Part shown: piece after piece, positions 17,968 to 38,428 of the stretch | Layout: each line of letters begins with the position of its first letter | Position numbering within the stretch: the first letter of the stretch is position 1 | Source: Splendidivirga corallicola | Lineage (GTDB): Bacteria > Bacteroidota > Bacteroidia > Cytophagales > Cyclobacteriaceae | Reading direction: 5' to 3' | DNA: 64,000 nucleotides | NCBI RefSeq assembly: GCF_030442035.1 | Contig: NZ_JAUJEA010000001.1 | Coordinates: forward strand, 525,559-589,558 | The notes under the pieces: generated by a model | Databases searched by the model: none | What the model was told of the DNA's origin: nothing | Seen by the model: the letters and a program-made list of their open reading frames with translations, nothing else | Position numbers and translations under genes: made by a program

Positions 17968-19521
17968 CTAATAAAGCTCCCACTTCCCTTTTCTGTAATA
18001 TTGATAAAGCACGGGGTTATGGATTTTGTTGACCTCAACTTCGGTGCCGGCATCAAGGAAAACATCCTTTCCAAAAGATGTCATGAGGGTCATGGCATCA
18101 TGGTTAAGCCATTTAGTCTCTATCTCATCAAAATGCAATGATTGAAGTGCTCTTTTAAAAGCTTCCGCACTCAAAGCCTTAGAGCCTGCAATCCATCCCC
18201 ATTCTCCCAGAGTCAATACCTGATTGTGCATTGGAACCGTTGAAAAACCTGCTTCCTGCATGGAAATTTCTATGCACTTAAAGGCCCTGGATGCATAATA
18301 AGGACTAGTAGCCTGCGTGATGATCAAACCGTCCGGTCGAAGTTGTTTATAACATAGTTTATAGAACTCAAAGGAATACAACCGGCCTAATTCAACTGTT
18401 TTGGGATCAGGAAGGTCAATGATAATTACATCAAAATACTGCTTTGAACGTTCCATGAAAGAAAAAGCATCTTCATTAATTACCTGCACCAGAGAATCAT
18501 TCAAAACTCCTTCATTGAGCTCCAATAAAACAGGGTGGGTTTTACCCAGATCAGTCATTGCCGGATCCAGATCGACAAGTACAACTTCCTCCACAGACGG
18601 ATATTTTAAAATTTCCCGGACAGCACAACCATCCCCTCCTCCCAATACCAATATGTTTTTAGGATATCTATGAAGCGACATCAGCGGCAATACCAGCGGT
18701 TCATGGTACATTTCTTCATCAACAGTACTAAGTTGCTGATTGCCATTGATAAATAACCAATAATCATTTTTATTCCTCGTAAGAACGATTTTCTGGTATT
18801 TACTTTGTTCTGTATAGACTACTCTGTCAGTGTATCTTCTTTCTTCCCCAAAACTTATGAGCGGCTTTGATACAATAACACCACCCAACAGCGCTAATGT
18901 GATGGCACATGCAAAAGCCGTGAACTTACGTTTTACGTTTGTTTCGATATGCTTCCAAAGCATAAAAAACAAAAGCAGCGCCACCAAAAAATTGATGGTA
19001 CCAAGAATAAAGGGTGTATAGGTAAGTCCTAAATAAGGCAATCCAACAAAGGCAAAAAAAACACCACCCAGCAGGCTGCCATAGTAATCTTTCTCCAGTA
19101 TTGATGAGACATTTATACGCAGTTCTTCAAATGCATCATTAAGGCGAATCACCAGGGGAATTTCCATACCGATCAGCAATCCTATAATGATACTTAAGCC
19201 ATAAATAACCAATCCAGTATAAATACCGAATGCTGAGGTTGTATAGGTAAGCAAAGACACGTAAGCAGCAAGGATTGAAAGAAAAAACTCAATGGTTATG
19301 AACTTTTGCAGGAGATTTCGTTCAAAGTATTTGCTGATCCTACTACCCAGCCCCATCGAAAATAACATGATGGATACAATCATGGTCCATTGAAACACTG
19401 AATTCCCCAGAAAATAAGTGGCTAGTGTCGAAAGTATATACTCAGCCACAATTCCGGAAAGTCCGGTAGCAAACAAGGCAATTTTCAGAATGTTGGACCT
19501 GATCTTATGAGTAAGTTGCAT
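17968..19521 (-). CDS. membrane-anchored spermidine-synthase-like polyamine aminopropyltransferase (SpeE-like)
   Basis: N-terminal ~220 aa with 6-7 TM helices. C-terminal SpeE fold with ILVLGGGDGCAVREILKY…VVLVDLDPAM…IIIDLPDP, the SAM-binding and catalytic-D motifs of aminopropyltransferases. Confidence 0.8.
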   Translation of the reverse strand: MQLTHKIRSNILKIALFATGLSGIVAEYILSTLATYFLGNSVFQWTMIVSIMLFSMGLGSRISKYFERNLLQKFITIEFFLSILAAYVSLLTYTTSAFGIYTGLVIYGLSIIIGLLIGMEIPLVIRLNDAFEELRINVSSILEKDYYGSLLGGVFFAFVGLPYLGLTYTPFILGTINFLVALLLFFMLWKHIETNVKRKFTAFACAITLALLGGVIVSKPLISFGEERRYTDRVVYTEQSKYQKIVLTRNKNDYWLFINGNQQLSTVDEEMYHEPLVLPLMSLHRYPKNILVLGGGDGCAVREILKYPSVEEVVLVDLDPAMTDLGKTHPVLLELNEGVLNDSLVQVINEDAFSFMERSKQYFDVIIIDLPDPKTVELGRLYSFEFYKLCYKQLRPDGLIITQATSPYYASRAFKCIEISMQEAGFSTVPMHNQVLTLGEWGWIAGSKALSAEAFKRALQSLHFDEIETKWLNHDAMTLMTSFGKDVFLDAGTEVEVNKIHNPVLYQYYRKGKWELY

Positions 19522-19600
19522 GGTTTTGATGACTGTGTCTGCCTCGTTTACTTTTGTGAAACCTCGAATATGAGTTCAACCTCAATGATAAGAGAAAGGG

Positions 19601-19685
19601 GGAAATTACGAATTCCAAATGACGAATTACGAATGAAAATAGCTCATTATTCGCCATCGTAATTCGTAATTTAAAATTCGTAACT
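19601..19685. promoter_or_regulatory. clustered TTACGAAT-type repeats forming a 13-bp stem-loop in the DUF350 to SpeE-like intergenic region
   Basis: GAAATTACGAATTCC at 19601-19615. ACGAATTACGAATG (19621-19634) pairs with ATCGTAATTCGT (19655-19667). Further ATTCGTAA copies to 19685. Also AGAAAGCG-GCAC-GCTTTCT hairpin at 19717-19739. Confidence 0.3.
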
Positions 19686-19740
19686 GTATAAGATACTGTT
19701 TGCAATGGAACTGTAAAGACAGAAAGCGGCACGCTTTCTA

Positions 19741-20586
19741 TTAAAGGCTCCAGGTGATCAAAACCGATCCGCCGATATAAGCGAAGGCTTCAATGACCGC
19801 AGCACCAAGATTCGGATGTTCCTGATTGATAATTTCATCCGTCAGATTTCTTCCCGGAAGCAGGATCTTATCCGTTAACAGCCTGGCCAATGGCAGGAAC
19901 AATAGTCCTATGACCACGTCAAAAGAAACATTCTCAATCGTGATCAGCCAATCTTCAAAATCGTGCATCAGTGCGAAACGGATCAAATTAGCGATGGCAA
20001 TCAGGGCTCCTGCAAAACCAATACCCACCGCCACATTATCTCTTTCTATATGAATATGAATGTCATAGGGTGTGATCCAATTATAAACATAGGAGGTAAT
20101 GATCAGAATGGCTTGTCCTATTACCCAATATACAATAGCACTTAGGATCCCTCCTTCACCATAAATCGATCCCATAATGATCAGCCCGGTTGCAATGCTG
20201 ATAGCCCCTTCAACAATGCCAACACCGGCATTCCTGTCTTCAATCACCTCCTTGCGAATGCTGAATTTCCTAAGGATGATCTTATCATTGACCAACACTG
20301 AAAGGTTCAACAAAATCACCGCCATACCACCATATATTCCAATGTTGATCATGTCGTACATCAGGCCTTCCGACTCACCCAGCATCACACTTCCGATGGA
20401 AATCAAAAGCCCCACAAAGTAACCTGTATGTGAGAGTGCAAAAGCAAAATTATCTTTCTCAACCAGTTCCTCCTGCACTTTGATTTTTTTGTGCAGTAAC
20501 TGATAAATGAGTTTTCCTATGAAAAATAGAACAAAGCTGCTTGCCAGATAGACGAGCGTAGTTAACAGGCCATCTACGATCTCCAT
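19741..20586 (-). CDS. DUF350-family membrane protein (YjfL-like, duplicated domains)
   Basis: 281-aa ORF with multiple short TM hairpins. N-terminal …LTTLVYLASSFVLFFIGKLIYQLL… matches the DUF350 repeat pattern. Sits directly upstream of the SpeE-like gene, as in known DUF350-SpeE pairs. Confidence 0.55.
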   Translation of the reverse strand: MEIVDGLLTTLVYLASSFVLFFIGKLIYQLLHKKIKVQEELVEKDNFAFALSHTGYFVGLLISIGSVMLGESEGLMYDMINIGIYGGMAVILLNLSVLVNDKIILRKFSIRKEVIEDRNAGVGIVEGAISIATGLIIMGSIYGEGGILSAIVYWVIGQAILIITSYVYNWITPYDIHIHIERDNVAVGIGFAGALIAIANLIRFALMHDFEDWLITIENVSFDVVIGLLFLPLARLLTDKILLPGRNLTDEIINQEHPNLGAAVIEAFAYIGGSVLITWSL

Positions 20587-20649
20587 ATTAGTAATAATGA
20601 TTTAAACGATTTCAATTTAACAATTAAATAAAAGCAAAAAAATTCAAGA

Positions 20650-21414
20650 TTATTTACCAAATCCACCACCACGTGACCGCGATCGTGAGCCGCTCGAATA
20701 ACGAGATCTGGATCTTGAGTTTGAACTGGTACTTCTTTGGGTCCTGCTTCTAACCCGATCTCGAAAGCTTCTATTTGATGCTTTGTTATACCAGGTGCTA
20801 GTGGGTTTTGATTTTCTGTTGTAATCACTATAGGTACCATAGTATGTTCCTCCCGTTCCAGTGGCGGGTCCATAGTAAGGCCTCCTTCCATAATATCCTC
20901 CACGCCAGTCATCATAATACGATCTTCTTACAGGATAAGCGAACATGTTGAACATAGAGCTCATAAAGGCATATTGTCCATAAAATTCCCAAAAGCTGGT
21001 ACCATTTCTTTGCGTCCAACGACCATACTTTTCATTACCTACATAATTCGAGTAACCTGGCGGAGCAGCAGTTTTAGAAACCTTCCCATCTGAAGTTTTT
21101 GCTGCGATCTCCATTCCCATATTGTTTTCATTTCTAAAAAAATAATCTTCATCCACTTCGTACCAGTCGGTAATCTCTTCAGAAGGAGTCCCATTGTTAT
21201 CTTTGATGACCTTGTACTGATGTTTGTAAGTTTTAAAGAAAGAGCCATCCGCATCCATATCATAAAGAATTATTGAAAAAAGTGGCTCATCGGACATATC
21301 CCGGATCAAATTATCTACCGGATTTTTTACAAATTCCCGTCCCCCTCCACAGGAGGCTAATATCAACAAAAAAAATGTGGAGATCAGGACCTTGTTAGTT
21401 TTCATAATAATCAA
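20650..21414 (-). CDS. lipoprotein with Arg/Ser-rich C-terminal tail
   Basis: Lipobox (FFLLILASCGGG). Tyr/Gly-rich middle (…YYDDWRGGYYGRRPYYGPATGTGGTYYGTYSDY…). The C-terminal 50 aa is RS-repeat-like (…RSTSSNSRSRSRYSSGSRSRSRGGGFGK). Confidence 0.45.
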   Translation of the reverse strand: MIIMKTNKVLISTFFLLILASCGGGREFVKNPVDNLIRDMSDEPLFSIILYDMDADGSFFKTYKHQYKVIKDNNGTPSEEITDWYEVDEDYFFRNENNMGMEIAAKTSDGKVSKTAAPPGYSNYVGNEKYGRWTQRNGTSFWEFYGQYAFMSSMFNMFAYPVRRSYYDDWRGGYYGRRPYYGPATGTGGTYYGTYSDYNRKSKPTSTWYNKASNRSFRDRVRSRTQRSTSSNSRSRSRYSSGSRSRSRGGGFGK

Positions 21415-21539
21415 ATTTCATTGGTTTTATCAAAGTGCAAAGCACTTAGTTCCTGCGGTTTTAGGCCGCTCAAATACCGTTTTTCTAAAGATAAGGCTTT
21501 GAAAAATATCCTAAAACCTAAATTATATAAACGGAAAAA

Positions 21540-22094
21540 TTATGAGCCCGGAAGTATGTTTGAAAATTCATAAGCCTCAACACTTTTTCCAATGGAAGCT
21601 TCAAATTCACGCTCACCCCACTGCTCTACATTTAGAATTAATTTCTCACTTTTGTCATAATATTCCCATGAGATCAATTCCGACCAGGCATCATCACCAT
21701 CTCCATCAGCCACATCTCTAAAATAACCCGCACTTTCCTCATCCAAAAGGTATTTGACATCCTCATAAACTATCTTCTTGGGAGGTCTTTCATTGTTGAT
21801 GATCTCTTCGGGCAGGTCTTCATTGATGGCCCTTATTTTTACTTTTCTGCTGACAGACAGTTCCAGTTCTTCGTTATCATCGACATACAAGTAAATGAGC
21901 TCTTTGCCATTATCAAGTTGAAACTCTCTCGTAAAATAATGATTTCCCCAATCGTATTCGTACTCTTCTTTGACGATCCATGAGTCCATTTCATAATCAA
22001 CCAGAAAACCTTTTTTAAGATCTGTGATCTTCAAATTGGTAGGATCATATTCCGGTTCCGATTCTTTCTTTTTGAATAGATCAAATAATCCCAT
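21540..22094 (-). CDS. DUF4178-family protein
   Basis: 184-aa acidic protein. …LKKGFLVDYEMDSWIVKEEYEYDWGNHYFTREFQL… fits DUF4178, which is recurrently linked to DUF350/SpeE-like genes. Assignment from memory. Confidence 0.5.
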   Translation of the reverse strand: MGLFDLFKKKESEPEYDPTNLKITDLKKGFLVDYEMDSWIVKEEYEYDWGNHYFTREFQLDNGKELIYLYVDDNEELELSVSRKVKIRAINEDLPEEIINNERPPKKIVYEDVKYLLDEESAGYFRDVADGDGDDAWSELISWEYYDKSEKLILNVEQWGEREFEASIGKSVEAYEFSNILPGS

Positions 22095-22229: not shown

Positions 22230-25200
22230 TTAGTCATTCTTTTTGTTCTTTTGTATAGCATCTTTTATTCCTGATAATCCACTTGTAATCGACTCCATTT
22301 GCTCCAATACCTGCCCCATTTGATTACCAACACCAAAACCTTTTAACCTTTGTTTTCTTTGGAAAGCACTTTTAATTTCCTCCCATCGCTTCTTCTCATC
22401 TTTAGAGATTGCTTTACGCATTTCCTTGAACTTTAACAAATTGGCTTCCGCTCCCGTTGTCAAAGTTTGTGCCTCATTTTCATAATGCGACATGATTAAA
22501 GTGTTCAGCTCATCATCGTTCATCACAGGCACAATCTTTTCGGAAATTTTATTCATATCTCTGTAGGAGCCTTGTAGTTTGAATTGAGGCTCAGTTCTGT
22601 ATTCATCAGCCTGTCCGGCGGAATAGATATATTCCTTGTTAACCATCAAAATGATATCACGGGCAAATAGCAATTTTTTAATTATGCTGATATACTCATT
22701 GATTTCTTCAGCGGCATGATTTGTTTCGAATTCGATTCCTTCTCTATCACCGGTTTCTGCCACATTTATTAAAGTATAAACATCTTTTCTACTCTTACTT
22801 TGCAGTTTATTTAAAATCGGATTAGAGGTAAGACTGTTTTCTAAATAGCTGAGTTTAAATACATCATCAGAGTCCCCAATGATGTCTCCAAGATTATAGA
22901 TATCAGCCCTGTTGGCCAACATATCAGGTATTCTAAACTTCTCACCACTCTCAGTATAAGGGTTACCGGCCATCACCACACAAACCTTTTTACCTCTAAA
23001 ATCATAGGTTTTACTTCTCCCCTTATAAACACCTTCTATCTTTCTTTGTGCATCACATAATGAAATGAATTTCTGTAAGAACTCCGGATTGCAATGCTGA
23101 ATGTCATCCAGGTAGATCATCACATTGTCGCCCATCTCAAAGGCTAAATTCAATTTTTCCAGCTCTTCTCTTGCTCCGGCATTTGGTGCTTCCTCCGGAT
23201 CCACGGCAGTAACTTCATGTCCGATGGCCGGACCGTTTATCTTCATGAAAATCAGGCCTAATCGGTTGGCTAGATATTCCATTAGTGTGGTCTTTCCATA
23301 ACCTGGCGGAGAGATCAATAATAACATTCCCATTAAATCCGTCCGCTTACCTTCGCCTGCTGCTCCGATTTGTTTGGCTAAGTTGGCTCCGATCAATGGC
23401 AGATACACCTGATCAATTAATCTGTTTCTGACAAAAGATGAAAGCACCCGAGGTCTGAACTCATTGAGTCTTAGTTCACTTTCAAACTCATGAATAAGTT
23501 GTTTTTTCAGATCGGTATATTTATCATAGAGAGGAACTATGTGGCTTTCGTAGTGATCAAGTTTCTTAATAAAGGTGTTATAATTGAAATGATAAACTTG
23601 CTCCTCAATGGTGGCATGTGATCCTTGAAGGCCTGTCAGATCTTCATGCAAAGCAACATGAATAATATTCTGTTTCTTAAAATCCTTTGTTAATAATAAA
23701 CATGCGGTTTCATCAATGTAATCAATCCATTCAATTTTGTCCTCCTGTGTAACATAGGCCTTTAACCAATGCTGGATAAGATTGAACTGCAGAAGTGGCT
23801 TATCATTAAGAGAATTAATGGATTTGTCATATTCATTTTTGACTCTTTTCTTTTTTAAGTAAGCGCCGAAGGCCTCATAAAGTGCCGCTGATTCCATATC
23901 AATTACAAAATTGTCCCCTCGGCTCAACTCATAGAATAAATATTCTGACGCCTGCTGACTAATGGCAGGCTCAAACAATTGTGTTTGCTCTAAGAAAAGG
24001 TCGAGCGCTCTTTTGAGCCTCATTTTAATGTTATCAAATTCCCTGGTCTCAGGAAACACCTGGAGTATTGTACCAACACCTTTTAACTGATTTTGCAAGT
24101 CTTGTTTTTCTTCAATCGAAGCAAAGGTCTTCCAATAGAGTGTTGCACATGCTCTTGCCTCTGAAGAATACCTTAAAAGGTCAGCTGTACTGATTATTTT
24201 GATAAGTGCCTGCAAAATAATGCTGGCATCATGATCATGAATTCCTTTTACATAGCCCTCATTATATCGAACAGCCATAAAGCTTCTCACATAATCGATT
24301 AATTCTTTATTGCTTAATTTGAATAAAGCCTCAACTCCCGGTACACTTTGTTCTTGCTCTTTCCTACTTTTATGTATGGAAGCCTGCAATACCTTAAAGG
24401 CTAAATACTCTCCTCTGTAGACTGCGTTATTCTCTGAAATGATATGCTGATCCCAAACTTCTCTGCAGGAATTAAACGTTTCATGGATAATTTCCTCAAA
24501 AAAATTGGTTCCCGTAAGATGATATTGCATCGACCCATCCCTATAAATAATAGTAAGGTCAAGGGGTTGTGTGTTAACTGAGAACTGATATTTACCAAAT
24601 TGAATCAAATTCTCACCATCCACGAAAAGCTCCGTTTTATCCTTTAACTGCCGGATGGCATCCTCTTTAACTGTCTTCAAACGACTCTGAATGTCATCTG
24701 ACTTCACAGTATCACCAATATCAATAAGCTCCTGAACGATATCTCTTATCTTTTCTATCATGAGGTCAGAAGCGAAATAGCCATTTATTTCTTTTGGATC
24801 ATCAAATCTGGCGACCCTGCTTTTGGCAGCATTTAATATTCTATCGGCAGCTTGTAATAAGTTATTAGCTCTTCTGTTTCTATTCTCAATGAGATTTACC
24901 TTTTTGGACTCAAAGGCATTGTATATCTCTTCCCTTTTAATGGTGATTTTTTCAATGAACTCATCGAATTCCGAGAATTTACCTTCCAGTTCCTCCAGTT
25001 GCACCATTAACTTAGTGAGGTATTCATCACATTTTTCCGGGGTATCACAAATATCCAGATAGTTGATTACACCCTGATCAATCAATTTGACTTGAGCGTT
25101 GAACTCAGCTTTTCCTTCAACGCTTAGTAATTCCTTTCTTCTCCTTTTTAGTGATGCCCTTATTTGATTAAAACCGGAGTAGATAGCCGAAATATTATCT

Positions 25201-27170
25201 ATGATCTTAGTCGTGTGGGTAGCATCCTCAATATTAAGGTTGGTAACTATTTCAATGAGCATTTCCAGTTCTTGTGAAACAATATCAATTTCATTCTCCA
25301 GCTCATTGGCATCAAATACTTTTTTAACTTTCGTTACAGCAGATTCAATTTTCTCCACCCGTGTTTGATATGGTTTCAGCGCCTGCTCCTTCAAAAGGAA
25401 GCTTACACAAGCTGATGAAACTTTATCAGTTATTTCATAAATACCCTTTTCCAAAAGTTCCACCTTTTGAACCTCTACGTAACGGAGTTCTTTAAGACCG
25501 ATCAATTCTCCTTTTATTGTTCGAAGCGCAGCCAGATATTGAACAAAGTCATCGATATTGGCGGCCTTTTTCCTTTTAATGTCTGTAACCAACTTCTCAG
25601 ATGCCTGCGTTACTCTGAGGACTTCTCGTTCGGTATTCTTTTTAATGCTGCTTACCTTCTCATACTCCGAAACAGCTGATGAAGCTGTTTCCTTGATAGC
25701 AAACAGTGGTTCACTTAGTTCATAGGATTCCTGTTTTCCCAGCCAATGATAACTATCAACAATATCTGTCGTGCGCTTGATAAGCTCACCATACAAGTCA
25801 GTATAGCTATCCTCTTTTTGCAAGAGTGTTAGTATTTCATGGCATTCTGCCATGGCCCTAACCACTTCCTTATTACCTATCTTGTATAAATAGGAATCAT
25901 TATTAGCGTTAATTTGAAAATCCGGCCCTACATAAGGCGTTTGCCAAATTTGAATAGCATGATGCTTTTTTGCCTCTTCATCAGCCCTGAAATTGATTTG
26001 CTCGCCATTTTCAAATAAGGAATAACCATGGCAAACCAATGGATTCTCCACGGCCTGTTCAATAAGATTATAAGGAAGCAAAAGGTATATCCCGGATTCT
26101 TTATTGTAAAAAACATAAAGAAAATCTTCTCCATTTGGAGAGGCGATTCTCTTTTCAAAGAGCATATGGTCTAACTGATTATCAAATTGCTTAACCTCTC
26201 CGGTCTGCAGATAATAACCATTGGAAAAGATGACGCCATGATCGTCCGGCAACAACACACAGGCATCTTTTAAGGCATCTATTCTTCTAGCTTCTTGCAG
26301 CTTGGCATTGTACACAATATATCGGTAGTCTTTCTCCTGGTAAGGCCTGATTTTTAAAACAATAATGTTACCAACGATTGCATAGTAAATCTCGGCATCT
26401 TCCAATCTCTGTTCCCGGTGTTCAACTTTCTCTGTATAAATGCCGCTTCCTTCATCCGTATTATCTTCAATCTTGATGGTTAAAGATCCTCCAATAGTTT
26501 CTACGAAAACCTTGTCTTCAATACTGATATGAGGAAATTTACCTTCTCTATGTAGATCCCGGTTAGTCCTTTTCCACTCGAATTCATGCTGCTGGGGGAA
26601 TACATATTCATGATCGCTTCGATTGTCGACATACTCAAGTTTGTCCCCTTTTACTAACCATTTAAATGTTTTGATATCCTCAGCATCTTTTCCAACTCTG
26701 AAAACCATATGAATATGAGGTCCGATCTCGGCAAACTTTATAAACCTTGTATTTTTATAATATTTATAAAGCTTTGAAAAATCATCCTTGAATACCTTGT
26801 CCTCAATTAATGTCAAGGGCATGGTATGAAAGCTATGATCACTATACCGATAAACACTAAAAACATCTGATAAGGCTGTCTCTGTCTTTAGGCCTAGGTG
26901 AACATTGTATCCAAAAATGAAAAATGACCCTATTGCTACCATGTCTGTGGGAACACAGTTGTTTTCCGTATTCACCCTTTCAGTGGATTTCAGCACAGTA
27001 TCAATAGAGCCAAATACTTCTTTCCGTACATTATTAAGCTGGTTCAACCGTTTTCTAAGCTCCTGTCCACTTTGGAGTATACGGTTGCGCAATATTTCAT
27101 ACGTTCCTTCTTCCAATTGTACAGATTGAACCTGATCAGAATTGTTTTCTATATTTTGATTTTCAGACAT
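22230..27170 (-). CDS. 1646-aa coiled-coil protein with C-terminal AAA+ ATPase domain (AAA_5 / dynein-MoxR-like subtype); function unknown
   Basis: Single uninterrupted ORF. Walker A ISPPGYGKTT encoded at about 23289-23315 (minus strand). Walker B and downstream helix MIYLDDIQHCNPEFLQKFISLCD fit the AAA_5 hhhhDEin..p.vl..L..ll pattern. Arg-finger candidates in …GNPYTESGEKFRIPDMLANRADIY…. The preceding ~1280 aa are E/K/L-rich heptad-type coiled coil plus unassigned globular segments. No TM helices. Confidence 0.75.
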   Translation of the reverse strand: MSENQNIENNSDQVQSVQLEEGTYEILRNRILQSGQELRKRLNQLNNVRKEVFGSIDTVLKSTERVNTENNCVPTDMVAIGSFFIFGYNVHLGLKTETALSDVFSVYRYSDHSFHTMPLTLIEDKVFKDDFSKLYKYYKNTRFIKFAEIGPHIHMVFRVGKDAEDIKTFKWLVKGDKLEYVDNRSDHEYVFPQQHEFEWKRTNRDLHREGKFPHISIEDKVFVETIGGSLTIKIEDNTDEGSGIYTEKVEHREQRLEDAEIYYAIVGNIIVLKIRPYQEKDYRYIVYNAKLQEARRIDALKDACVLLPDDHGVIFSNGYYLQTGEVKQFDNQLDHMLFEKRIASPNGEDFLYVFYNKESGIYLLLPYNLIEQAVENPLVCHGYSLFENGEQINFRADEEAKKHHAIQIWQTPYVGPDFQINANNDSYLYKIGNKEVVRAMAECHEILTLLQKEDSYTDLYGELIKRTTDIVDSYHWLGKQESYELSEPLFAIKETASSAVSEYEKVSSIKKNTEREVLRVTQASEKLVTDIKRKKAANIDDFVQYLAALRTIKGELIGLKELRYVEVQKVELLEKGIYEITDKVSSACVSFLLKEQALKPYQTRVEKIESAVTKVKKVFDANELENEIDIVSQELEMLIEIVTNLNIEDATHTTKIIDNISAIYSGFNQIRASLKRRRKELLSVEGKAEFNAQVKLIDQGVINYLDICDTPEKCDEYLTKLMVQLEELEGKFSEFDEFIEKITIKREEIYNAFESKKVNLIENRNRRANNLLQAADRILNAAKSRVARFDDPKEINGYFASDLMIEKIRDIVQELIDIGDTVKSDDIQSRLKTVKEDAIRQLKDKTELFVDGENLIQFGKYQFSVNTQPLDLTIIYRDGSMQYHLTGTNFFEEIIHETFNSCREVWDQHIISENNAVYRGEYLAFKVLQASIHKSRKEQEQSVPGVEALFKLSNKELIDYVRSFMAVRYNEGYVKGIHDHDASIILQALIKIISTADLLRYSSEARACATLYWKTFASIEEKQDLQNQLKGVGTILQVFPETREFDNIKMRLKRALDLFLEQTQLFEPAISQQASEYLFYELSRGDNFVIDMESAALYEAFGAYLKKKRVKNEYDKSINSLNDKPLLQFNLIQHWLKAYVTQEDKIEWIDYIDETACLLLTKDFKKQNIIHVALHEDLTGLQGSHATIEEQVYHFNYNTFIKKLDHYESHIVPLYDKYTDLKKQLIHEFESELRLNEFRPRVLSSFVRNRLIDQVYLPLIGANLAKQIGAAGEGKRTDLMGMLLLISPPGYGKTTLMEYLANRLGLIFMKINGPAIGHEVTAVDPEEAPNAGAREELEKLNLAFEMGDNVMIYLDDIQHCNPEFLQKFISLCDAQRKIEGVYKGRSKTYDFRGKKVCVVMAGNPYTESGEKFRIPDMLANRADIYNLGDIIGDSDDVFKLSYLENSLTSNPILNKLQSKSRKDVYTLINVAETGDREGIEFETNHAAEEINEYISIIKKLLFARDIILMVNKEYIYSAGQADEYRTEPQFKLQGSYRDMNKISEKIVPVMNDDELNTLIMSHYENEAQTLTTGAEANLLKFKEMRKAISKDEKKRWEEIKSAFQRKQRLKGFGVGNQMGQVLEQMESITSGLSGIKDAIQKNKKND

Positions 27171-27281: not shown

Positions 27282-27983
27282 TTAAACCGTAAAGTATTCT
27301 TCCAACTCTTTCAAAGTATTCTCACTGGTTTTAATATCATGGATGATATTTCCTTTCTCTAACACCACGATTCTTTCACATACTTCCGTTACATGGTTTA
27401 AGTCGTGACTGGATATCAGCATGGTTACCTGTTTTTCATGTTTCAATTCCAACAATCTCTTTTTCAACCTTATTTGGGTAGTAGGATCAAGGTTGGCAAA
27501 TGGCTCGTCTAAAACTATTATTTCAGGATCAATCATCAAAGCTGCCGCAATACCTACCTTTTTTTGATTTCCCTTGGAAAGATCCCGAATGTATTTCTTC
27601 ACTCCTCTGATCTCACCATTGAACACTTCCTCAAAAGAATTTAGAAAACTTTCCACATCTCCTTTTGAAAGCCCATGAATATTTGCAATAAAGTTGAAAT
27701 ATTCATCAGGTGTCAGGAAATCAATCAAAAACCCCTCATCCAGGTAAGATCCGGTATATTTCTTCCACTCTTCGTTTTCACTTACGACTACATCATTGGA
27801 TTTAACCATTCCGTTATTTGGTCTAATGAGATCCAGGATCATTCTGAAAAGTGTTGTTTTTCCAGCGCCATTGTTACCAACAAGACCGAAACTTTCCCCT
27901 TTTGAAATGTTCAATTCGGGAACGTTAACAACTTCTATTTCTTTATAGGATTTTTTAAGATCGTTTATTTCTATTATGTTCAT
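27282..27983 (-). CDS. ABC transporter ATP-binding protein
   Basis: Walker A GNNGAGKTT, ABC signature LSKGNQKKVGIAAAL, Walker B IIVLDEP, H-loop SSHDL. Confidence 0.85.
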   Translation of the reverse strand: MNIIEINDLKKSYKEIEVVNVPELNISKGESFGLVGNNGAGKTTLFRMILDLIRPNNGMVKSNDVVVSENEEWKKYTGSYLDEGFLIDFLTPDEYFNFIANIHGLSKGDVESFLNSFEEVFNGEIRGVKKYIRDLSKGNQKKVGIAAALMIDPEIIVLDEPFANLDPTTQIRLKKRLLELKHEKQVTMLISSHDLNHVTEVCERIVVLEKGNIIHDIKTSENTLKELEEYFTV

Positions 27984-28031: not shown

Positions 28032-29510
28032 TCAGACTTGCCTGAAACCTGATGCTATAATGTATTTTCTATTATTATATCTTTTTTCTAAAAGTTGAAG
28101 CCAGTAGTCCTTCAAAATAAATCCTACTATACCCATTGTTGCCAACAAGCCCACTCCTACCCACGGAATATCAAACAACATGAATGGCACCGCCAGAAGT
28201 ATCGGCCCAAGCAAGAATGGAAGAACCAAAATAAACTGCGTAGCGCTTATACCTTCATAATTGAAAGCTGCACCCTTACTCAGATCTACCTTCTTAGGGT
28301 TTTTTAACCCAAAATAAAGGATCGTAAATGAGTTCACGCCTATATTAAAAAGACAGCATGCCAGGTTGATGATTACTACTTTCCACCCAAAATATATATA
28401 AGGTATGCTTAAGACAAAGGCAATGGCTGAACTGGCCACAAACAACCACATTTTCGATTCAAGGTAATCCCTTGCACTGATATTGCTTGATAGTATTTTA
28501 TCAAAAAAACTACTGTGCCAGCTCAAGAGTAACTGGCCATAGTTGCTTAGGAAAATCCCGGTAATGAAAATCCCAACAAATATTAGAAAGCCAAATCCCT
28601 CCAGGTAGATATCATTGGTGTAAAAGATCAATCCATACAACAAAAAAGCAACGCTCAGATAGAATATTGATTTTGGTCTTTTGTTTCTTAGAATAAGCTT
28701 CATTTCCAAGGCTATGAAGTGACCAATTTTGCCATATCTATCCAAAAATGAAGTATTGAGTTCTTTGTATTCGTTTTTCTTCCTTCCAATTTGAATCTCT
28801 TCTAAGTAAGCATTTCGTTTTAAAAAATTATAGTTGATATAATAGGCGAGCCCTATCATTCCTAAGATAACCAGTAGCAGTAAAGGATTTCCGGCAATGG
28901 CGGAAAAAGTAGCAGACGCAAACTGAGAAATATTCAAAAGTTGAAAATAATCAGCAGCAGCCAGTGAGAGTAGCAGCAAAGCAAAGATCAACACAACCTT
29001 GGCATTTCCAGCTAATTGTCTCTTTATATGGATGGCCAGGAAGTTGCTGAATAAGATCATTCCGCATACTCCCAAAAACCAGTAAAGTGCACCATTACTA
29101 CCCACAGTTCCGGGTGCCACTTTAATAGCGAATGGAATAAAGATCAGCAAAGGCAGGTAATTGAAAAAGCTTACCAGCGATTTGGAGAGCATAAAATGTA
29201 TCATTTTGCCCTTCTTGATAGGTAAGTGAAGATAGGGTGTTATGGAAAGTACGGGTACATCCTGCAGGAAGAACCTCATTAGTATATCCATACCCAAATA
29301 GTAAAATAAGAAACTGTTAAATACGGTAAATGGATCTTGGTCAGGAAAAACATTTTTTAGGATCTCATCAATAAAAAAACCAAGCAATAAGAGATAGGCC
29401 ATCATTATAAAAATGAAGATGCCCAACACAATGTTAACACCAGTGCTACTATTAAATCTCGTTGCCCGGAAAGTCTCCTTCCATTGATGATCAATGAGCC
29501 ACTTTATCAT
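28032..29510 (-). CDS. polytopic membrane protein, putative permease partner of the ABC ATPase
   Basis: 492-aa ORF with about 12 TM helices. Sits immediately upstream of the ABC ATPase with a 48-bp gap. No family recognised by eye. Confidence 0.55.
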   Translation of the reverse strand: MIKWLIDHQWKETFRATRFNSSTGVNIVLGIFIFIMMAYLLLLGFFIDEILKNVFPDQDPFTVFNSFLFYYLGMDILMRFFLQDVPVLSITPYLHLPIKKGKMIHFMLSKSLVSFFNYLPLLIFIPFAIKVAPGTVGSNGALYWFLGVCGMILFSNFLAIHIKRQLAGNAKVVLIFALLLLSLAAADYFQLLNISQFASATFSAIAGNPLLLLVILGMIGLAYYINYNFLKRNAYLEEIQIGRKKNEYKELNTSFLDRYGKIGHFIALEMKLILRNKRPKSIFYLSVAFLLYGLIFYTNDIYLEGFGFLIFVGIFITGIFLSNYGQLLLSWHSSFFDKILSSNISARDYLESKMWLFVASSAIAFVLSIPYIYFGWKVVIINLACCLFNIGVNSFTILYFGLKNPKKVDLSKGAAFNYEGISATQFILVLPFLLGPILLAVPFMLFDIPWVGVGLLATMGIVGFILKDYWLQLLEKRYNNRKYIIASGFRQV

Positions 29511-29711: not shown

Positions 29712-30287
29712 TTATATCAAATTTTTAATTTTGTGTTTTGCATTTCTCAACCCATCTTTCTCTAAAAAAATTTGCCGCAGCAGATTGCAAGTATAACTCA
29801 AACATACCAACAGTGTCATGTCATCAGATAGATTACTCTCATATTGAATAAAATCTTTCAACGTCCGAATAAGCTCATCTTTATGTTTGATATTGACAAT
29901 TGGATATCTTTTAGACTTGAATATCCACAATGTCCTTTGTTCTTTTTGTTCAAGTATTCTTTTTTCGATCAGTTGACGGATATAGTAATTTTGAATTTTC
30001 CTTCCGTTTCTTGCCAATCGACTAATCCAAAAAGACAACTTACGAGCCTTCTTGTCCTGTGCTATAAGTTCAAGAGCCAGATTGTGCATAGGGTTATCAT
30101 TTCTTCCGGAAGACACAATGTTCAGTTTATTATTATCATCGATTTTAATCTTATTTTGCTTTATAAGTTCGTATAATAATATGCCGCTCAATGAATAAAC
30201 CATACCCAAATGAGTTGTAACAAGGCTACCCCTTTGGGTATCAATTCCCAATAAAATAAGTTTTTCTGAAAGTTGAAGTGTCTGCAT
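29712..30287 (-). CDS. GPP34 (GOLPH3/Vps74)-family protein, bacterial form
   Basis: 191-aa ORF. N-terminal LSEKLILLGIDTQRGSL… resembles the conserved start of bacterial GPP34-family proteins (L.EELLLLALDDEKG). All-helical composition. Assignment from memory, moderate. Confidence 0.45.
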   Translation of the reverse strand: MQTLQLSEKLILLGIDTQRGSLVTTHLGMVYSLSGILLYELIKQNKIKIDDNNKLNIVSSGRNDNPMHNLALELIAQDKKARKLSFWISRLARNGRKIQNYYIRQLIEKRILEQKEQRTLWIFKSKRYPIVNIKHKDELIRTLKDFIQYESNLSDDMTLLVCLSYTCNLLRQIFLEKDGLRNAKHKIKNLI

Positions 30288-30303
30288 ATTATTTATTTTG
30301 TTC

Positions 30304-30615
30304 TTATAAGTTTAACCAAAATGTTACGGCAAAATATAACCATATGATTGTTATTAATAGTAGACCCATTGTGACTAACCGGTAGAACTTCGACTTTTTA
30401 CCGGCCAATTCAATTTTCTTTTTCTTGCGCTGCTTCTTTTGCTCATCAGCCCTTTTTTCTTTGATCCATTGTTGTATCTCCTCTTTTGTAGTATCTGAAT
30501 TGTTATTAGTGGCCCTAGTTACATTATTATTACTAGAAGGAACTTTTTTTTCAGAATCAATGGTCATTGTAGGCTCCGCGATAGTGTTATTTACTGTTAA
30601 GTCTTTTGAATACAT
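30304..30615 (-). CDS. small tail-anchored membrane protein (Lys-rich N-term, one C-terminal TM)
   Basis: 103-aa ORF. …KEKRADEQKKQRKKKKIELAGKK… then a single TM helix (LVTMGLLLITIIWLYFAVTFWL). Confidence 0.3.
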   Translation of the reverse strand: MYSKDLTVNNTIAEPTMTIDSEKKVPSSNNNVTRATNNNSDTTKEEIQQWIKEKRADEQKKQRKKKKIELAGKKSKFYRLVTMGLLLITIIWLYFAVTFWLNL

Positions 30616-30847
30616 TATTTATTAAACTCATATATACTATGTTAATAGCGACCAGTCCTAAGGTAGCAATAGTAAAAGCGATCCAGGTGGAAATTCTATC
30701 TTGATCGGCATTTGCTAAGAGTATCAGGAGCATTCCGAATATTGAAAAACTAAGGACGAATCCGGACAATTTACAGGCTATTTTCTCATGGGAACTCTTC
30801 ATTTTTCGATGTTTAAGTGATTTGATGTGCACACACCTCCTCTGCAC
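30587..30847 (-). CDS. small two-TM membrane protein
   Basis: 86-aa ORF with two hydrophobic helices. Overlaps the next ORF by 29 bp. Confidence 0.3.
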   Translation of the reverse strand: MQRRCVHIKSLKHRKMKSSHEKIACKLSGFVLSFSIFGMLLILLANADQDRISTWIAFTIATLGLVAINIVYMSLINNVFKRLNSK

Positions 30848-30932: not shown

Positions 30933-33068
30933 CTAAATGATTCCTAAACTATTTACGGCTTTATCATCAATACCTAATGCTTTAGCTACATTGGATAATT
31001 GATTCAAAACATCCTTGGAATCACTATCTTTTGCTTGATCAATCAATTTCAGCAACAACGCCGAAACACTCAAATTTTTGATATCATTGGTGTTTAAGCC
31101 AAATTGACCAACAAACTGACGCAATTTATCCTTAAAGCTTTGTCCGGTATCAGTAGTGAAGAAAACGTCTTTAACATCCTGTATCACGTGACTATTATCA
31201 ACCATTCTGTCCACAGTTTTACCTTTAGTAATCGCGCCCATGATTTGGTTAAAGAACATGGTTTCTCCTCCAACGATATCTATATTGGCCGCTTTTAACG
31301 CTTCGGATATAACCTCAGCTTGTGCCATGGCTATGTCTCGTTGAATGTTGATAGAAGCCAGCTCAATTTCTTTATCCTTCTCCAGGTTCAATTTAAACTC
31401 TTCATGTTCTTTACCAACACCATCCAACTTCTTCATGGCATCAGCCTTCTGCTCAATACCCTTGGCATCAACCGCTAATTTCTCGGCGATTACTCTTGCT
31501 TCTGCCAGTCCTTTTTTCTCCTCAGCCTCAGCTTTTGCTTCGACAACTTTGGCTTGTGCCAATCCAAGTTTTTGATCGCCAATGGCCTGAGCCTCTGATC
31601 TGACCTCAATACCCTTCGCTTCCGCCTCAGCCTTGTCTTCAATCAGGCTGGCCTCTGCTTCACCTTGTTTTATCTTGGCTGCAGCTTTTGCTTCCATTAC
31701 CTGTGCTTCCGACATACCCAATGCCGCAGCTTCAGCTGCCTTCGCCTCAGCTAGTGTTTTAACTGCATCGGCCTTGTGGCCCGCAGAGGCCTGCTCAGCT
31801 TCTGCATCGATCAGGATTTGCTTGGCTCTGTGCTCAGCGGCCTGCTTTTTAGCTTCCGCGTCTTTTATCTCTTTAACCAAGGCCTGTTCAGCATCCCTTT
31901 CAGCATTGGTAATGGCTACCTTTTTATTTCTTTCCGCTTCGGAATAAGCTTTGGTATCCTTAATTTTTTCTTCTTCTTCCACTACGGCCTTTTCCACCGC
32001 TACTCTTTCTCTGATAACATCCTGGATATTCTTTCTTTCTTCTTCCACGGCCTTTTCCTTTTCTATCTGGGCTAAAGTCACAATTCGCTCTCTTTCTGTG
32101 GCTTCCAACATTCTCGCCTGCTCCACTCTCTCGGTCTCCACGGCATCGGTTTTCTCTTTATTTTTCTGAGCCACCAATACTTCTCTTGCTTTATTTTGTT
32201 CTGCTACCTGAACTTCTTCATCAGTCTGAATTCTTGATTTTTCTGATTTTAATCGTTCCTGTTCCTGAACAATTTTTATTTCGGCCTCTTCTCTGGCTTT
32301 GATAGATTCCACTTCCTTTCGTTGTTTTTCCTCTGTTTCGGCCAATTGCTTTTCAAGCTCAAGTATTGTCTCCCTGGCCTCAACATTTTGTTTTGTGATC
32401 GTTTTCTCTTTTTCCTTTTCGATTAAGTTTGCTTTGATCTTTTCTCTGGAAGTGATATCAATAATTTTCTTGATACCTTCAGCGTCCAAAATGTTGCTCT
32501 CGTTTAAAGAATCGAGCGGTGTTTGCTCTAAATAATCTATAGCACAATCATCAAGGATATAACCGTTAAGATTGGTTCCTATTTCTTCGATGATTCTTTC
32601 CCTGAACTGTGCTCTGGAATTATACAATTCAACGAAATCAAATTGCTTTCCAACAGTTTTCAATGCTTCGGAAAATTTGGCATCGAATAACAATTCAAGT
32701 TGCTCTTTCGAAGATGCTCTTTGACAACCAATTGATTGTGCAACGTGTATCACATCCTCCTTCGTTTTATTTACCCTAACAAAAAAGGTTACTTTTATAT
32801 CCGCTCTCAGATTGTCTTGACATATCAATCCATCTTTACCTGTTCTTGATATTACCATTGTCTTTAAAGTAATATCCATTACTTCCATCTTGTGTAGAAC
32901 AGGAATTACGAACATTCCTTCGAATGATACTTTAGTTCCTCCTTTGCCGGTTTTTACAATAGCCTCTCCCTGTATTACCTTTTTGTACATTTTTATAAAT
33001 GCTACTAAGGCACCAAACAGGAAAATGCTTCCAATAATTATTAATGCATAAATTACAGATCCTGCCAT
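30933..33068 (-). CDS. flotillin (SPFH/band-7 family, YqiK-like) with ~450-aa Ala/Glu/Lys-rich coiled-coil
   Basis: N-terminal TM helix and SPFH domain (…GEAIVKTGKGG…MEVMDITLKTMVISR…DNLRADIKVTFFVRV…). Long EA/KA-repeat coiled-coil. Conserved flotillin C-terminal region. Confidence 0.85.
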   Translation of the reverse strand: MAGSVIYALIIIGSIFLFGALVAFIKMYKKVIQGEAIVKTGKGGTKVSFEGMFVIPVLHKMEVMDITLKTMVISRTGKDGLICQDNLRADIKVTFFVRVNKTKEDVIHVAQSIGCQRASSKEQLELLFDAKFSEALKTVGKQFDFVELYNSRAQFRERIIEEIGTNLNGYILDDCAIDYLEQTPLDSLNESNILDAEGIKKIIDITSREKIKANLIEKEKEKTITKQNVEARETILELEKQLAETEEKQRKEVESIKAREEAEIKIVQEQERLKSEKSRIQTDEEVQVAEQNKAREVLVAQKNKEKTDAVETERVEQARMLEATERERIVTLAQIEKEKAVEEERKNIQDVIRERVAVEKAVVEEEEKIKDTKAYSEAERNKKVAITNAERDAEQALVKEIKDAEAKKQAAEHRAKQILIDAEAEQASAGHKADAVKTLAEAKAAEAAALGMSEAQVMEAKAAAKIKQGEAEASLIEDKAEAEAKGIEVRSEAQAIGDQKLGLAQAKVVEAKAEAEEKKGLAEARVIAEKLAVDAKGIEQKADAMKKLDGVGKEHEEFKLNLEKDKEIELASINIQRDIAMAQAEVISEALKAANIDIVGGETMFFNQIMGAITKGKTVDRMVDNSHVIQDVKDVFFTTDTGQSFKDKLRQFVGQFGLNTNDIKNLSVSALLLKLIDQAKDSDSKDVLNQLSNVAKALGIDDKAVNSLGII

Positions 33069-33079
33069 GTATTTAAGTG

Positions 33080-33757
33080 TTATATGTTTTCATAAGGTTC
33101 AACCAAATAGACATTGTTGTCGTGATTGTAATCAATCACCAAACCAGATTCCCCTACCTTCAAGCTGGTTCCCTGTTGTGTTTTTATGTTCAGCAGTATT
33201 GGGGATCCGTCAGTTTCAATTCTAGCCTGTCCAACTTTGCTCTCCGTTATTTCACTATTTGCAATGCAAATTTTACCTATTAGTGAGTTATCAGCATCTC
33301 CCATTTCATCATTGGCAAACAATTTCATGAATGGCATCGTGATAAACTTGGCTATGAACAGGCTGACCACAAAATTTGGTATTAAAAAAATCAGTCCTAG
33401 AATAAACGATTCGTTTCCGAAAAAGTCATTTAATAAAATAGAAATCGCCCACATTGGAAGAATCAAAAAACTCATAAAGATCATCAATGGGATTTTTCCA
33501 ATGTTGAAGAAAGCAAGTACGGAATTAAATGAAGCACCACCAGAACCACTTCCAACATCTGTGTCCAAGTCAGCATCGGCATCGATATCCAAATCAGCAT
33601 CAACATCAAGGTCCACATCCGTATCGACATCAACATCAAAAGAACTGATGTCCAATGCACCCAAAAAAACTGAAAGCCAATAGATCAAAAGAAAAATGAG
33701 CAATGCAGTTGGGATGACATTGGGAGCAGAAATTGCTGCGTCAAAAAGTTCTTTCAT
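33080..33757 (-). CDS. NfeD-like / YqiJ-family membrane protein with acidic (D-x)n dipeptide repeat
   Basis: TM helices. DVDVDTDVDLDVDADLDIDADADLDTDV repeat. C-terminal OB-fold-like segment (…LIGKICIANSEI…GQARIETDGSPILLNIK…). Sits immediately upstream of the flotillin gene, as yqiJ does for yqiK. Confidence 0.6.
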   Translation of the reverse strand: MKELFDAAISAPNVIPTALLIFLLIYWLSVFLGALDISSFDVDVDTDVDLDVDADLDIDADADLDTDVGSGSGGASFNSVLAFFNIGKIPLMIFMSFLILPMWAISILLNDFFGNESFILGLIFLIPNFVVSLFIAKFITMPFMKLFANDEMGDADNSLIGKICIANSEITESKVGQARIETDGSPILLNIKTQQGTSLKVGESGLVIDYNHDNNVYLVEPYENI

Positions 33758-34061
33758 ATTTATACCGTTTGGTTCTTGAAGGTCTCATGAAATTAACGTA
33801 AACTTTATTCGTCCTTGATTGGTACTGCTAAAGACAATTAGAGAATGACGTTCATTTCATGAATGTTAAAGTTAAAAGTGATAAAAAATGGGAGCTTCAG
33901 GAGATTGTCTAAAGACAGTATCATTCAGTGCTAACAAAATAAATCTCTAAAAAAATAAGCCGTCAACTCACCCAATGCACTGGAATGATACTATCGAAAG
34001 TAGATGAAAGGTTGATTTATTGGTATATCCATTAGGACAATCAACCTCTACCAGAAAAATA

Positions 34062-34793
34062 TTATTCTTTCGATTCTTCGGTACTTTCGTCACTAAGGCC
34101 CATTTTAGCCTTCAGTGCTGCGAGATCATCTTTTGCCTTGATTTCTGATTCTCCTTCAAGGGCTTTATCTATCTCGTCATCTACCGTTTTACTTTCATTG
34201 GCAATTTCTCCGTAAGACTCTGCCAAGGCTTCTTCCTGCGCAACTTTATCCTTCATCTTTTCAAGCATAGCGACAGTACTGGAAGAATCAATCTGTGCCA
34301 TTTGCTTATTTAAAGTCTTTGTTGCAGTACTCACCTTTACACGGGCTTTTAAAGTTTTAAGCTCATTTTCCCATTTACTTATATTTGATCTCAAGGTCTT
34401 GACATTTTTCTCCAACTGAGCCACGTTGACCTCAAATTTGTCTTTTTCCTCCTTTGCCCTAGCCATATGTTGTACGTTTTCTTCTTTTTTCACGAGCGCT
34501 TCACTAGCTAATCTATCAGCTTCAGCCGCATCAATTTGACCGGATTGACCTTTTTTCAATAAAAGCATCGCTTTATTTTCGTAGTCTTTTGCCTTATTTC
34601 TATAGGTTTCAACGTCATTTCTGGATCTGATAGCAAGGGCTTTTACCTCTGCCAATGCCTGTAAACTTTTATCAAGGTCCTTTTTCATGTCTCTAATACC
34701 TTGCTCAGTCATTTTAATAGGATCTTCCAATTTATCAATCGCCGAATGCGCCTCTGCTTCACCTATTTTAAAAATTCTCTTAAAAATGTTCAT
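34062..34793 (-). CDS. pspA: PspA/IM30/Vipp1-family protein (bacterial ESCRT-III homolog)
   Basis: MNIFKRIFKIGEAEAHSAIDKLEDPIKMTEQGIRDMKKDL… is the canonical PspA N-terminus. 243 aa, all coiled coil. Confidence 0.85.
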   Translation of the reverse strand: MNIFKRIFKIGEAEAHSAIDKLEDPIKMTEQGIRDMKKDLDKSLQALAEVKALAIRSRNDVETYRNKAKDYENKAMLLLKKGQSGQIDAAEADRLASEALVKKEENVQHMARAKEEKDKFEVNVAQLEKNVKTLRSNISKWENELKTLKARVKVSTATKTLNKQMAQIDSSSTVAMLEKMKDKVAQEEALAESYGEIANESKTVDDEIDKALEGESEIKAKDDLAALKAKMGLSDESTEESKE

Positions 34794-34808
34794 GACTCTA
34801 TTTTCTAT

Positions 34809-35204
34809 TTAGTTTTTTGAAAATTTGATTAACTCGTTTGAATACTCGCTTAACAAAAGTCCCAATGAATTTAAAGTAGCTTCTATTTCATTTAAATCAA
34901 GGTTCTCCAATTCATGAGTATTTCTGAAAATAACTTTCTTACCCGATTCATCCAGTACAAATGCTCCGTGAATGATATCTCTGTTTTTTTGTAACAGCCC
35001 TTTATAAACATCCGTGGATTCGTTATTTACTTCTAAAATGAATTGTTCAACAATTAATAAAGGGTCTGCGACACCAAGTACAAGGTTTTTAACACCTTCT
35101 GTTTCATGTTCAATTACAATGATGCCATCATCATCATTTTCATAAGTAATTGAGTAGTTTAACTCAAGGACGTAGTCTTTTACTTTTTGAAAGTAATTAT
35201 TCAT
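34809..35204 (-). CDS. YjfI-like (DUF2170) protein, PspA-associated
   Basis: 131-aa acidic protein immediately upstream of pspA with a 15-bp gap. Size, composition and position mirror yjfI-yjfJ in Enterobacteria. Similarity judged by eye only. Confidence 0.5.
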   Translation of the reverse strand: MNNYFQKVKDYVLELNYSITYENDDDGIIVIEHETEGVKNLVLGVADPLLIVEQFILEVNNESTDVYKGLLQKNRDIIHGAFVLDESGKKVIFRNTHELENLDLNEIEATLNSLGLLLSEYSNELIKFSKN

Positions 35205-38418: not shown

Positions 38419-38428
38419 ACGAACTCCT

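Follow-up and report, generated by a model that had tools for sequence, protein, structure and literature searches.

A proposed mosaic membrane-maintenance locus in Splendidivirga corallicola with a conserved YqiJ-flotillin-giant AAA+ trio

Introduction

Which partners does a giant AAA+ protein serve when its gene lies in a long array together with genes for the ESCRT-III-superfamily protein PspA, a flotillin and a polyamine module? The question is raised by a stretch of 64,000 nucleotides (the window; forward strand of contig NZ_JAUJEA010000001.1, positions 525,559 to 589,558, assembly GCF_030442035.1) from Splendidivirga corallicola (Bacteroidota, Cytophagales, Cyclobacteriaceae). At positions 17968-35204 of the window, 14 consecutive open reading frames (ORFs) all lie on the minus strand, and one of them encodes a protein of 1646 amino acids (aa), here called the giant. 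An earlier reading made from the DNA letters (the sequence-only reading) had listed these co-directional genes, and the ORF listing bears out the array and almost all of the domain calls, although several of the intergenic gaps described as short measure 111-304 bp.

The same reading had presented the link of an AAA+ protein to PspA and flotillin as unassigned and new, but the architecture and the operon were already published (Ravi et al., 2024, mSystems, PMC11237479, section 19 and Table S3; preprint 2020) among 'two novel overlapping genomic associations' around PspA. The first joins CesT/Tir, PspA, YqiJ/YuaF, Band7/flotillin and a 'beta-propeller + coiled-coil + AAA+ ATPase', sometimes with a PLD/HKD hydrolase; Dokdonia donghaensis ANH61663.1 (Table S3) is the prototype, including a divergent 'cHTH+Protease' gene, and shorter flotillin-YqiJ(-AAA+) operons have a wider distribution. 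The second joins CesT/Tir-PspA with a seven-transmembrane (7TM) spermine synthase, DUF350, the Ctha_1186 lipoprotein and DUF4178, as at Shewanella SO_3765. The ESCRT-III/Vps4 analogy was drawn explicitly for the giant ATPase in that work (PMC11237479). A Vps4-like ATPase 'appears absent in bacteria' in the words of a 2025 review (PMC7619361), and systems of vps4 with ESCRT-III are restricted to archaea and eukaryotes (Makarova et al., 2024). According to work cited in both PMC7619361 and Makarova et al. (2024), SPFH proteins recruit PspA in Bacillus subtilis.

Results

Flotillin and YqiJ are the fixed partners of the giant

Neighbourhoods were counted at 90 related loci. Eighty are genome loci, the best-scoring of at least 596, taken with 10-kb flanks from Bacteroidota, Planctomycetota, Verrucomicrobiota/Kiritimatiellota, Desulfobacterota, Clostridia and Chitinispirillaceae; a Hymenobacter plasmid (L001), four close relatives and one distant relative (L086) were added. 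Neighbours were detected on six-frame ORFs with iterated hidden Markov models, each seeded with one window protein, and the denominators given here are the loci with enough flank (informative loci). A YqiK-type flotillin gene was found directly upstream of the giant gene, on the same strand, at 67 of 70 loci and in six or more phyla, with a YqiJ gene upstream of the giant at 63 of 70 informative loci. PspA was encoded within 10 kb at 25 of 67 loci, corresponding to 25/32 in Bacteroidota and 0/35 elsewhere. Genes for a CesT-like protein and for a divergent regulator were each detected near the giant at 24/67 loci, in Bacteroidota only, and the regulator is divergent from CesT at 24 of the 32 informative Bacteroidota loci. 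A DUF4178-lipoprotein-DUF350-SpeE block, referred to below as the polyamine block, directly follows the giant on its 3' side at five of 66 loci (the window, L004, L013, L040 and L059), and the order is the same in the Cytophagales and Flavobacteriales members of this set.

The sequence-only reading had predicted that homologs of the giant would be enriched near PspA, flotillin, DUF350 and SpeE-like genes rather than occur at random positions. Over the 90 loci, placement was found to be strongly non-random, and the prediction is upheld for the flotillin-YqiJ side; it does not carry over to PspA or to DUF350 and SpeE. Because flotillin and YqiJ reach 67/70 and 63/70 against 25/67 for PspA, we regard flotillin/YqiJ, not PspA, as the fixed partner of the giant. 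The evolutionarily fixed unit is the trio of YqiJ (NfeD-like), YqiK-type flotillin and giant, and the CesT-like chaperone with YjfJ-type PspA is a Bacteroidota addition ahead of it. In a few Bacteroidota, this one among them, the polyamine module is joined on as well; elsewhere that module comes with a CesT-PspA pair of its own. Individual loci document the range of arrangements. The Hymenobacter plasmid carries a compact five-gene form, as do many Flavobacteriia loci; L059, from another member of the Cyclobacteriaceae, has the fused arrangement of giant and polyamine block with the flotillin-giant insert absent; and upstream of the 28%-identical giant of L086 lie genes for a 239-aa protein and a Band_7 protein, while PspA is absent.

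Domain organization and conservation of the giant

The gene for the giant (22230..27170, minus strand) encodes DUF3686 (Pfam, 4e-189) at residues 37-475, DUF7902 at residues 596-680 and a weak AAA/AAA_5 match at residues 1283-1407. The protein shows 100% identity to one from Fulvivirgaceae bacterium BMA10 (Cytophagales). AlphaFold2 (AF2) models were built on 14-sequence alignments. The model of residues 1-700 (predicted local distance difference test score, pLDDT, of 76) has about 21 beta-strands at 59-410 followed by long helices, and the DUF3686 region (about 59-410) is, as modelled, a beta-propeller. The model of the C-terminus (pLDDT 71) gave weak Foldseek matches to ClpB/Skd3, NorQ, RuvB and MCM. 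The earlier label 'AAA_5 coiled-coil' captured the C-terminal AAA+ domain but was incomplete, as a predicted beta-propeller and spectrin-like helical rods, DUF7902 among them, precede it.

In sequence and profile searches of the PDB, alignments of the giant with NVL, Rix7, Rpt3, p97 and RuvB were limited to a Walker A stretch of 35-65 residues (E about 1e-3); Vps4 was not among these matches. Pfam detected no MIT domain in the giant, whose N-terminus is the predicted propeller. Membership of the Vps4 family is not supported, as both MIT and Vps4-specific similarity were lacking in Pfam, PDB sequence and profile, and Foldseek searches. With regard to AAA+ clade, the matches scatter across clades in the PDB profile and Foldseek searches, for a model of moderate quality. 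The Walker A (SPPGYGKT) and Walker B (YLDDIQH) motifs, a sensor-1-like GNPYTE motif and several arginines show no variation among 18 homologs with identities as low as 30%. A further motif, EGYxKGxHDxD at residues about 971-981, lies in the otherwise helical middle of the protein and may be a functional site; its G976, H978 and D981 are invariant in the same 18 homologs.

The family is large, with more than 5000 proteins among the matches listed, 455 clusters at 50% identity (E <= 1e-30) and at least 596 matches among species-representative genomes. It extends over hundreds of species in at least six phyla, and the full-length architecture is kept down to 28% identity.

Identity of the flotillin, YqiJ, CesT-like and PspA proteins

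The 711-aa protein encoded at 30933..33068 and the 225-aa protein encoded at 33080..33757 (both minus strand) had been called flotillin and YqiJ/NfeD-like, and neither had a significant match in Pfam, NCBIfam or PDB sequence searches. Comparison of family profiles with hhalign supports both calls. The flotillin profile matched Escherichia coli YqiK with a probability of 100% (E 9e-42) over 407 columns that include the transmembrane (TM) segment and the SPFH domain, and the YqiJ-like profile matched E. coli YqiJ with a probability of 95.7% (E 1e-8). Weak matches to structures were found as well, to QmcA (8z5g, E 1e-3) for the flotillin profile and to YuaF (2k14) for the YqiJ-like profile. Since the hhalign comparison with YqiK succeeded after Pfam, NCBIfam and the PDB had failed to recognise the 711-aa protein, we consider its identity as a flotillin settled. 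It is laid out as an N-terminal TM segment, an SPFH domain and a long EA-rich coiled coil, and the YqiJ/YuaF-type protein has three hydrophobic segments, as predicted for a 3-TM protein.

The first gene of the array (34809..35204, minus strand) encodes a CesT/Tir-like chaperone that matches PF22550 (CesT_Tir_1) over its full length (1.3e-56). It had been called YjfI-like, but this CesT/Tir-superfamily family is different from that of YjfI (DUF2170), and a BLAST comparison of the protein with E. coli YjfI gave no match. The PspA gene lies 15 bp away (34062..34793, minus strand; PF04012 PspA_IM30, 5.5e-44), and its product is of the YjfJ type, aligning over its full length with E. coli YjfJ at 23% identity (E 1e-9). 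After a variable linker, PspA ends in a peptide (DDLAALKAKMG, 34062-34100) whose pattern, (D/E)(D/E)LxxLKxx(L/M)G, recurs in 27/27 Bacteroidota orthologs; the counterpart in E. coli YjfJ is QDVLARLQRQQG. We considered this peptide as a giant-specific MIT-interacting motif (MIM) and rejected the idea. Because E. coli YjfJ shares the peptide while being encoded in an operon without a giant, the CesT-like partner appears the more likely ligand.

Accessory genes between flotillin and giant and downstream of the giant

Five genes, all on the minus strand, separate flotillin from the giant. Two encode small membrane proteins, one with two hydrophobic segments (2-TM; 30587..30847, though the true start is probably an internal Met at 30802) and one with a charged N-terminus and a single, C-terminal hydrophobic segment, a predicted TM (30304..30615). 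Relatives of both are found at L082, L083, L084 and L089 (E about 1e-46 for the first), in keeping with the earlier view of two mini membrane proteins as genes. These are followed by a GPP34-family gene (29712..30287; PF05719, 5e-28, 99 bits), by a gene for a polytopic DUF5687 membrane protein, a putative ABC permease (28032..29510; PF18940, 2e-163; nine wide hydrophobic segments), and by its partner ABC ATPase gene (27282..27983; ABC_tran, 1e-22, 81 bits against a cut-off of 25).

The order flotillin, small TM, small TM, DUF5687, ABC, giant is found at L082 (BMA12), L083 (TARA) and L089, whose giants are 66-68% identical to that of the window and which lack both GPP34 and the polyamine block. 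Across the 90 loci, the small membrane proteins with DUF5687/ABC occupy this position in a Fulvivirgaceae-level subclade only. L084 keeps the two small genes and, at the site of DUF5687/ABC in its sister loci, has a 61-aa ORF (5379-5564) corresponding to the DUF5687 N-terminus. The remnant indicates a deletion scar and a dispensable cassette. Pontibacter roseus and Roseivirga also carry the two-gene cassette, there in unrelated contexts, and DUF5687 is followed by an ABC ATPase in every context seen. The ATPase is most similar in NCBIfam to exporter ATPases of the DrrA/GldA type, at scores below their cut-offs; with an ATPase above its family threshold beside a predicted polytopic DUF5687 protein, the two genes have the makings of an ABC exporter pair. 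GPP34 was absent from all 90 of the other loci, and in a word-indexed search of 5.8 billion clusters the protein matched itself alone; as a family member it is either highly divergent or a recent acquisition. At L003, L015, L025, L037 and L038 (Bacteroidota), the slot between flotillin and giant holds other lineage-specific small TM proteins or lipoproteins. Because different lineages fill this slot differently, we regard it as a hotspot for lineage-specific accessories.

The polyamine block (minus strand) consists of genes for a DUF4178 protein (21540..22094; PF13785, 1.7e-21), a lipoprotein (20650..21405), a tandem DUF350 membrane protein of the YjfL family (19741..20586; PF03994, 2e-57, in two stretches) and a membrane-anchored polyamine aminopropyltransferase resembling SpeE (17968..19521; NF002956, 7e-166, above its cut-off; Spermine_synth, 3e-38). 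The lipobox (LLILASC) and RS-rich tail of the lipoprotein and the predicted hydrophobic segments, seven in the DUF350 protein and six at the N-terminus of the SpeE-like protein, agree with the earlier lipoprotein call and membrane topologies. The lipoprotein, which also has a Tyr/Gly-rich region, is kept at L004, L013, L040 and L059, and with its low-complexity tail it occupies the place of the Ctha_1186 lipoprotein, a match of position only. The earlier statement that yjfI-yjfJ and the DUF350/polyamine genes are normally adjacent is confirmed by E. coli yjfIJKLMC and by Ravi et al. (PMC11237479). On the best-supported reading, the array has grown further by accretion of the polyamine module and of the ABC/GPP34 genes.

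An AT-rich imperfect inverted repeat with 36-nt arms (81% complementary) was noted in the gap between DUF350 and SpeE (19603-19685). It is composed of five AATTACGAATT-like units, and one more exact copy of the unit lies at 53435.

Candidate promoter, divergent regulator and flanking genes

A scan for sigma-70 promoters and terminators was uninformative, as the counts equalled those of shuffled controls, and the Bacteroidota -33/-7 motif was scanned for instead. A candidate promoter of this type, TTG-N20-TATATTTG with the internal palindrome CTAAAACTTTTAG, is located at 35535..35565 on the minus strand, about 330 nt upstream of the first gene. It is the sole minus-strand match to TTG-N17-23-TAnnTTTG among the 14 intergenic gaps checked; the -7 motif TAnnTTTG itself occurs twice on the 17.2-kb cluster strand. 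The promoter-like motif and the palindrome are held within a conserved element of roughly 35 nt (35535-35575) that adjoins the start codon of the regulator gene; in L082, L083 and L089, the three closest relatives, this element is almost unchanged, in more distant Cytophagales (L059, L012, L015 and L001) it can still be recognised, and it is a candidate promoter/operator. A second, inverted copy of GCTAATRTTTTGAGC lies at about 35400-35414.

At the other end of the array, a terminator-like hairpin with a T-run (17903..17915, minus strand) lies 53 nt past the SpeE stop codon, and no comparable site was found in the internal intergenic gaps. Among these are gaps of 304 bp (PspA-YqiJ), 219 bp (DUF350-SpeE), 201 bp (GPP34-DUF5687) and 111-135 bp (around the giant). 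One promoter and one terminal hairpin are consistent with, though not proof of, a single regulated operon, and we propose that the array is probably transcribed from the one promoter beside the regulator.

This divergent regulator (35591..36373, plus strand; the 'cHTH+Protease' of Ravi et al.) combines an XRE-type HTH (HTH_3, 8e-10) with an S24-like domain (Peptidase_S24, 4e-9). In a low-identity alignment of about 24 homologs, the LexA Ser/Lys dyad was not conserved; the positions aligned to E. coli LexA S119/K156 are Glu (or Met/other) and Arg. Because residues equivalent to the dyad are lacking, self-cleavage is doubtful, and the S24-like part suggests a non-cleaving sensor or dimerisation domain.

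Downstream of the regulator lies a gene for a PLD/HKD-superfamily protein (36446..37135, plus strand; PLDc_2, 4e-31), which has weak similarity to defence-associated HKD nucleases in PADLOC. Such a protein recurs beside the system at L015, L082, L089, L011 and L073. At L011, a Bacteroidota metagenome-assembled genome (MAG), the genes downstream of the giant include PspA and PLD, both on the opposite strand, and at L073, a Pedosphaera MAG, the PLD gene is directly 3' of the giant. The plus-strand genes at 36446-39028 (PLD/HKD, SnoaL_2, a 150-aa protein and a 2',5' RNA ligase-like protein) are syntenic in L082, L083 and L089.

Discussion

Taken together, these data are best explained, with a probability that we put at roughly 0.6, by a mosaic of previously described membrane-maintenance modules, probably co-transcribed, in which YqiJ, flotillin and the giant form the conserved engine and the other modules were added. 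The reading that fits the giant best is a remodelling ATPase associated with flotillin and, in Bacteroidota, coupled to PspA. Judging from gene context, its most likely target is the flotillin scaffold, with PspA that has been recruited there as a possible second one. Membrane stress would derepress the operon, and flotillin and YqiJ would build a scaffold on the inner membrane face, where the giant would dock via its propeller. By analogy with the SPFH-AAA+ pairings HflK/C-FtsH and prohibitin-m-AAA, the AAA+ ring would then use ATP to assemble, turn over or extract scaffold components, an action that in Bacteroidota could extend to a PspA polymer recruited onto the scaffold.

Several points weigh against this interpretation. 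The mechanism is drawn from gene context, and the AF2 models reach only moderate pLDDT values of 71 and 76. Walker B has DD rather than DE, so that hydrolysis competence is assumed. The 80 genome loci, being the best of at least 596, under-sample distant members of the family, with L086 as the sole distant check. The counts cover 10-kb linkage, and PspA outside Bacteroidota may be encoded elsewhere in the genome. Finally, weaker internal promoters could go unnoticed in the gaps of 111-304 bp.

The closest competitor is a proposal that casts the giant as the Vps4-equivalent that bacterial ESCRT-III seemed to lack, binding PspA polymers and disassembling them with ATP, with flotillin only a platform. 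PspA and the giant do share one operon at 25 of 32 informative Bacteroidota loci, the conserved amphipathic C-terminal peptide of PspA after its variable linker resembles the MIM motifs of ESCRT-III, reviews still list no such ATPase for PspA (PMC7619361), and Ravi et al. (PMC11237479) drew the same analogy. We nevertheless think the proposal unlikely. Outside Bacteroidota, PspA was within 10 kb at none of 35 loci whereas flotillin is nearly universal; the giant has a predicted propeller at its N-terminus and no MIT domain; its similarity to classical-clade AAA+ proteins covers about 35-65 residues at Walker A, without a match to Vps4 and with scattered fold matches; and the same PspA peptide is present in E. 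coli YjfJ, from an operon without a giant. The Vps4-like role for PspA suggested in the sequence-only reading is unsupported by domain content.

A similarly improbable alternative is that the 17-kb array consists of independent abutting units, with the ABC pair, GPP34 and the polyamine module functionally unlinked to PspA, flotillin and the giant. The occurrence of DUF5687/ABC alone in unrelated contexts and its loss in L084, the restriction of GPP34 to this genome, the presence of the polyamine block at only five of 66 loci and the gaps of 135-219 bp flanking these modules would all fit. Against it, the polyamine block follows the giant in the same order in four further genomes of Cytophagales and Flavobacteriales and is elsewhere a known PspA partner, the insert is kept in four genomes at 58-68% protein identity, and the internal gaps hold no consensus promoter or terminator. 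Far less credible still is a DNA-repair ATPase or an anti-phage defence system. The NCBI name of the giant is 'DNA repair ATPase', Pfam describes DUF3686 as 'ATPase involved in DNA repair', and a LexA-family-like regulator, a PLD/HKD protein and weak PADLOC matches might seem to agree. However, no DNA-metabolism gene was found in the 90 neighbourhoods, the partners that stay fixed are membrane proteins, the LexA catalytic dyad is missing from the S24-like domain and a literature search found no mention of DUF3686; in PADLOC 2.0 there was no specific signature match, only generic P-loop, HKD and HTH similarity, and a defence system was rejected. The family name 'DNA repair ATPase' is very probably wrong.

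Returning to the mosaic locus with its conserved trio, we raise as a tentative suggestion that the giant is a dedicated ATP-driven remodeller of YqiK-type flotillin scaffolds, in Bacteroidota coupled through these scaffolds to PspA/ESCRT-III polymers. If so, it would correspond to Vps4 in function though not by homology, bacterial flotillin dynamics would have their first assigned energy source, and the variable slot between flotillin and giant would encode lineage-specific scaffold clients or adaptors. The giant is a widespread and strongly linked candidate in the question of how, with no Vps4-like motor, bacteria assemble and recycle their PspA/Vipp1 polymers and flotillin scaffolds. Compared with the published association, the refinement is that flotillin/YqiJ are the invariant partners and PspA a phylum-specific addition. 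The compact five-gene loci of the Hymenobacter plasmid, Bacteroides and Flavobacterium are better experimental entry points than the 14-gene mosaic.

Comparison with known systems

The first operon of Ravi et al. has the same genes, order and divergent regulator as the window, with the occasional PLD/HKD neighbour. Here too CesT is directly upstream of PspA, YqiJ and flotillin are present, and the divergent gene encodes a cHTH with a protease-like domain. What sets the window apart is some 3.6 kb of additional genes that part flotillin from the giant, and a second module that follows the giant. All four non-PspA genes of the second operon, to which E. coli yjfIJKLMC is related, are present and contiguous in the window, and SpeE, DUF350 and DUF4178 share their strand and the candidate promoter with CesT-PspA. 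However, the block lacks a CesT-PspA pair of its own, the pair being 12 kb away at the far end of the array; DUF4178 comes first; there is no ribbon-helix-helix (RHH) regulator; and the CesT-like protein belongs to PF22550, not DUF2170.

With E. coli YqiJ-YqiK and B. subtilis YuaF-FloT, the window shares profile-level homology and gene order, but those species have no giant AAA+ gene downstream, and the window proteins are too divergent for the Pfam Band_7/Flot models. The likeness to Vps4/CdvC with ESCRT-III is that an AAA+ ATPase gene lies beside an ESCRT-III-superfamily gene, for the giant in Bacteroidota only. In contrast to Vps4, the giant is about 1200 residues larger, has a predicted propeller and spectrin-like rods and no MIT domain, and keeps flotillin as its conserved partner. 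SPFH cages are paired with AAA+ proteins in HflK/C-FtsH and in prohibitin with the m-AAA protease. Whereas the giant has neither a protease domain nor a TM segment, the likeness to these pairs, proposed here from genes only, would be an SPFH scaffold tied to an AAA+ protein at the membrane. The core idea is already published, from comparative genomics only, and the locus is a new mosaic arrangement of that published system.

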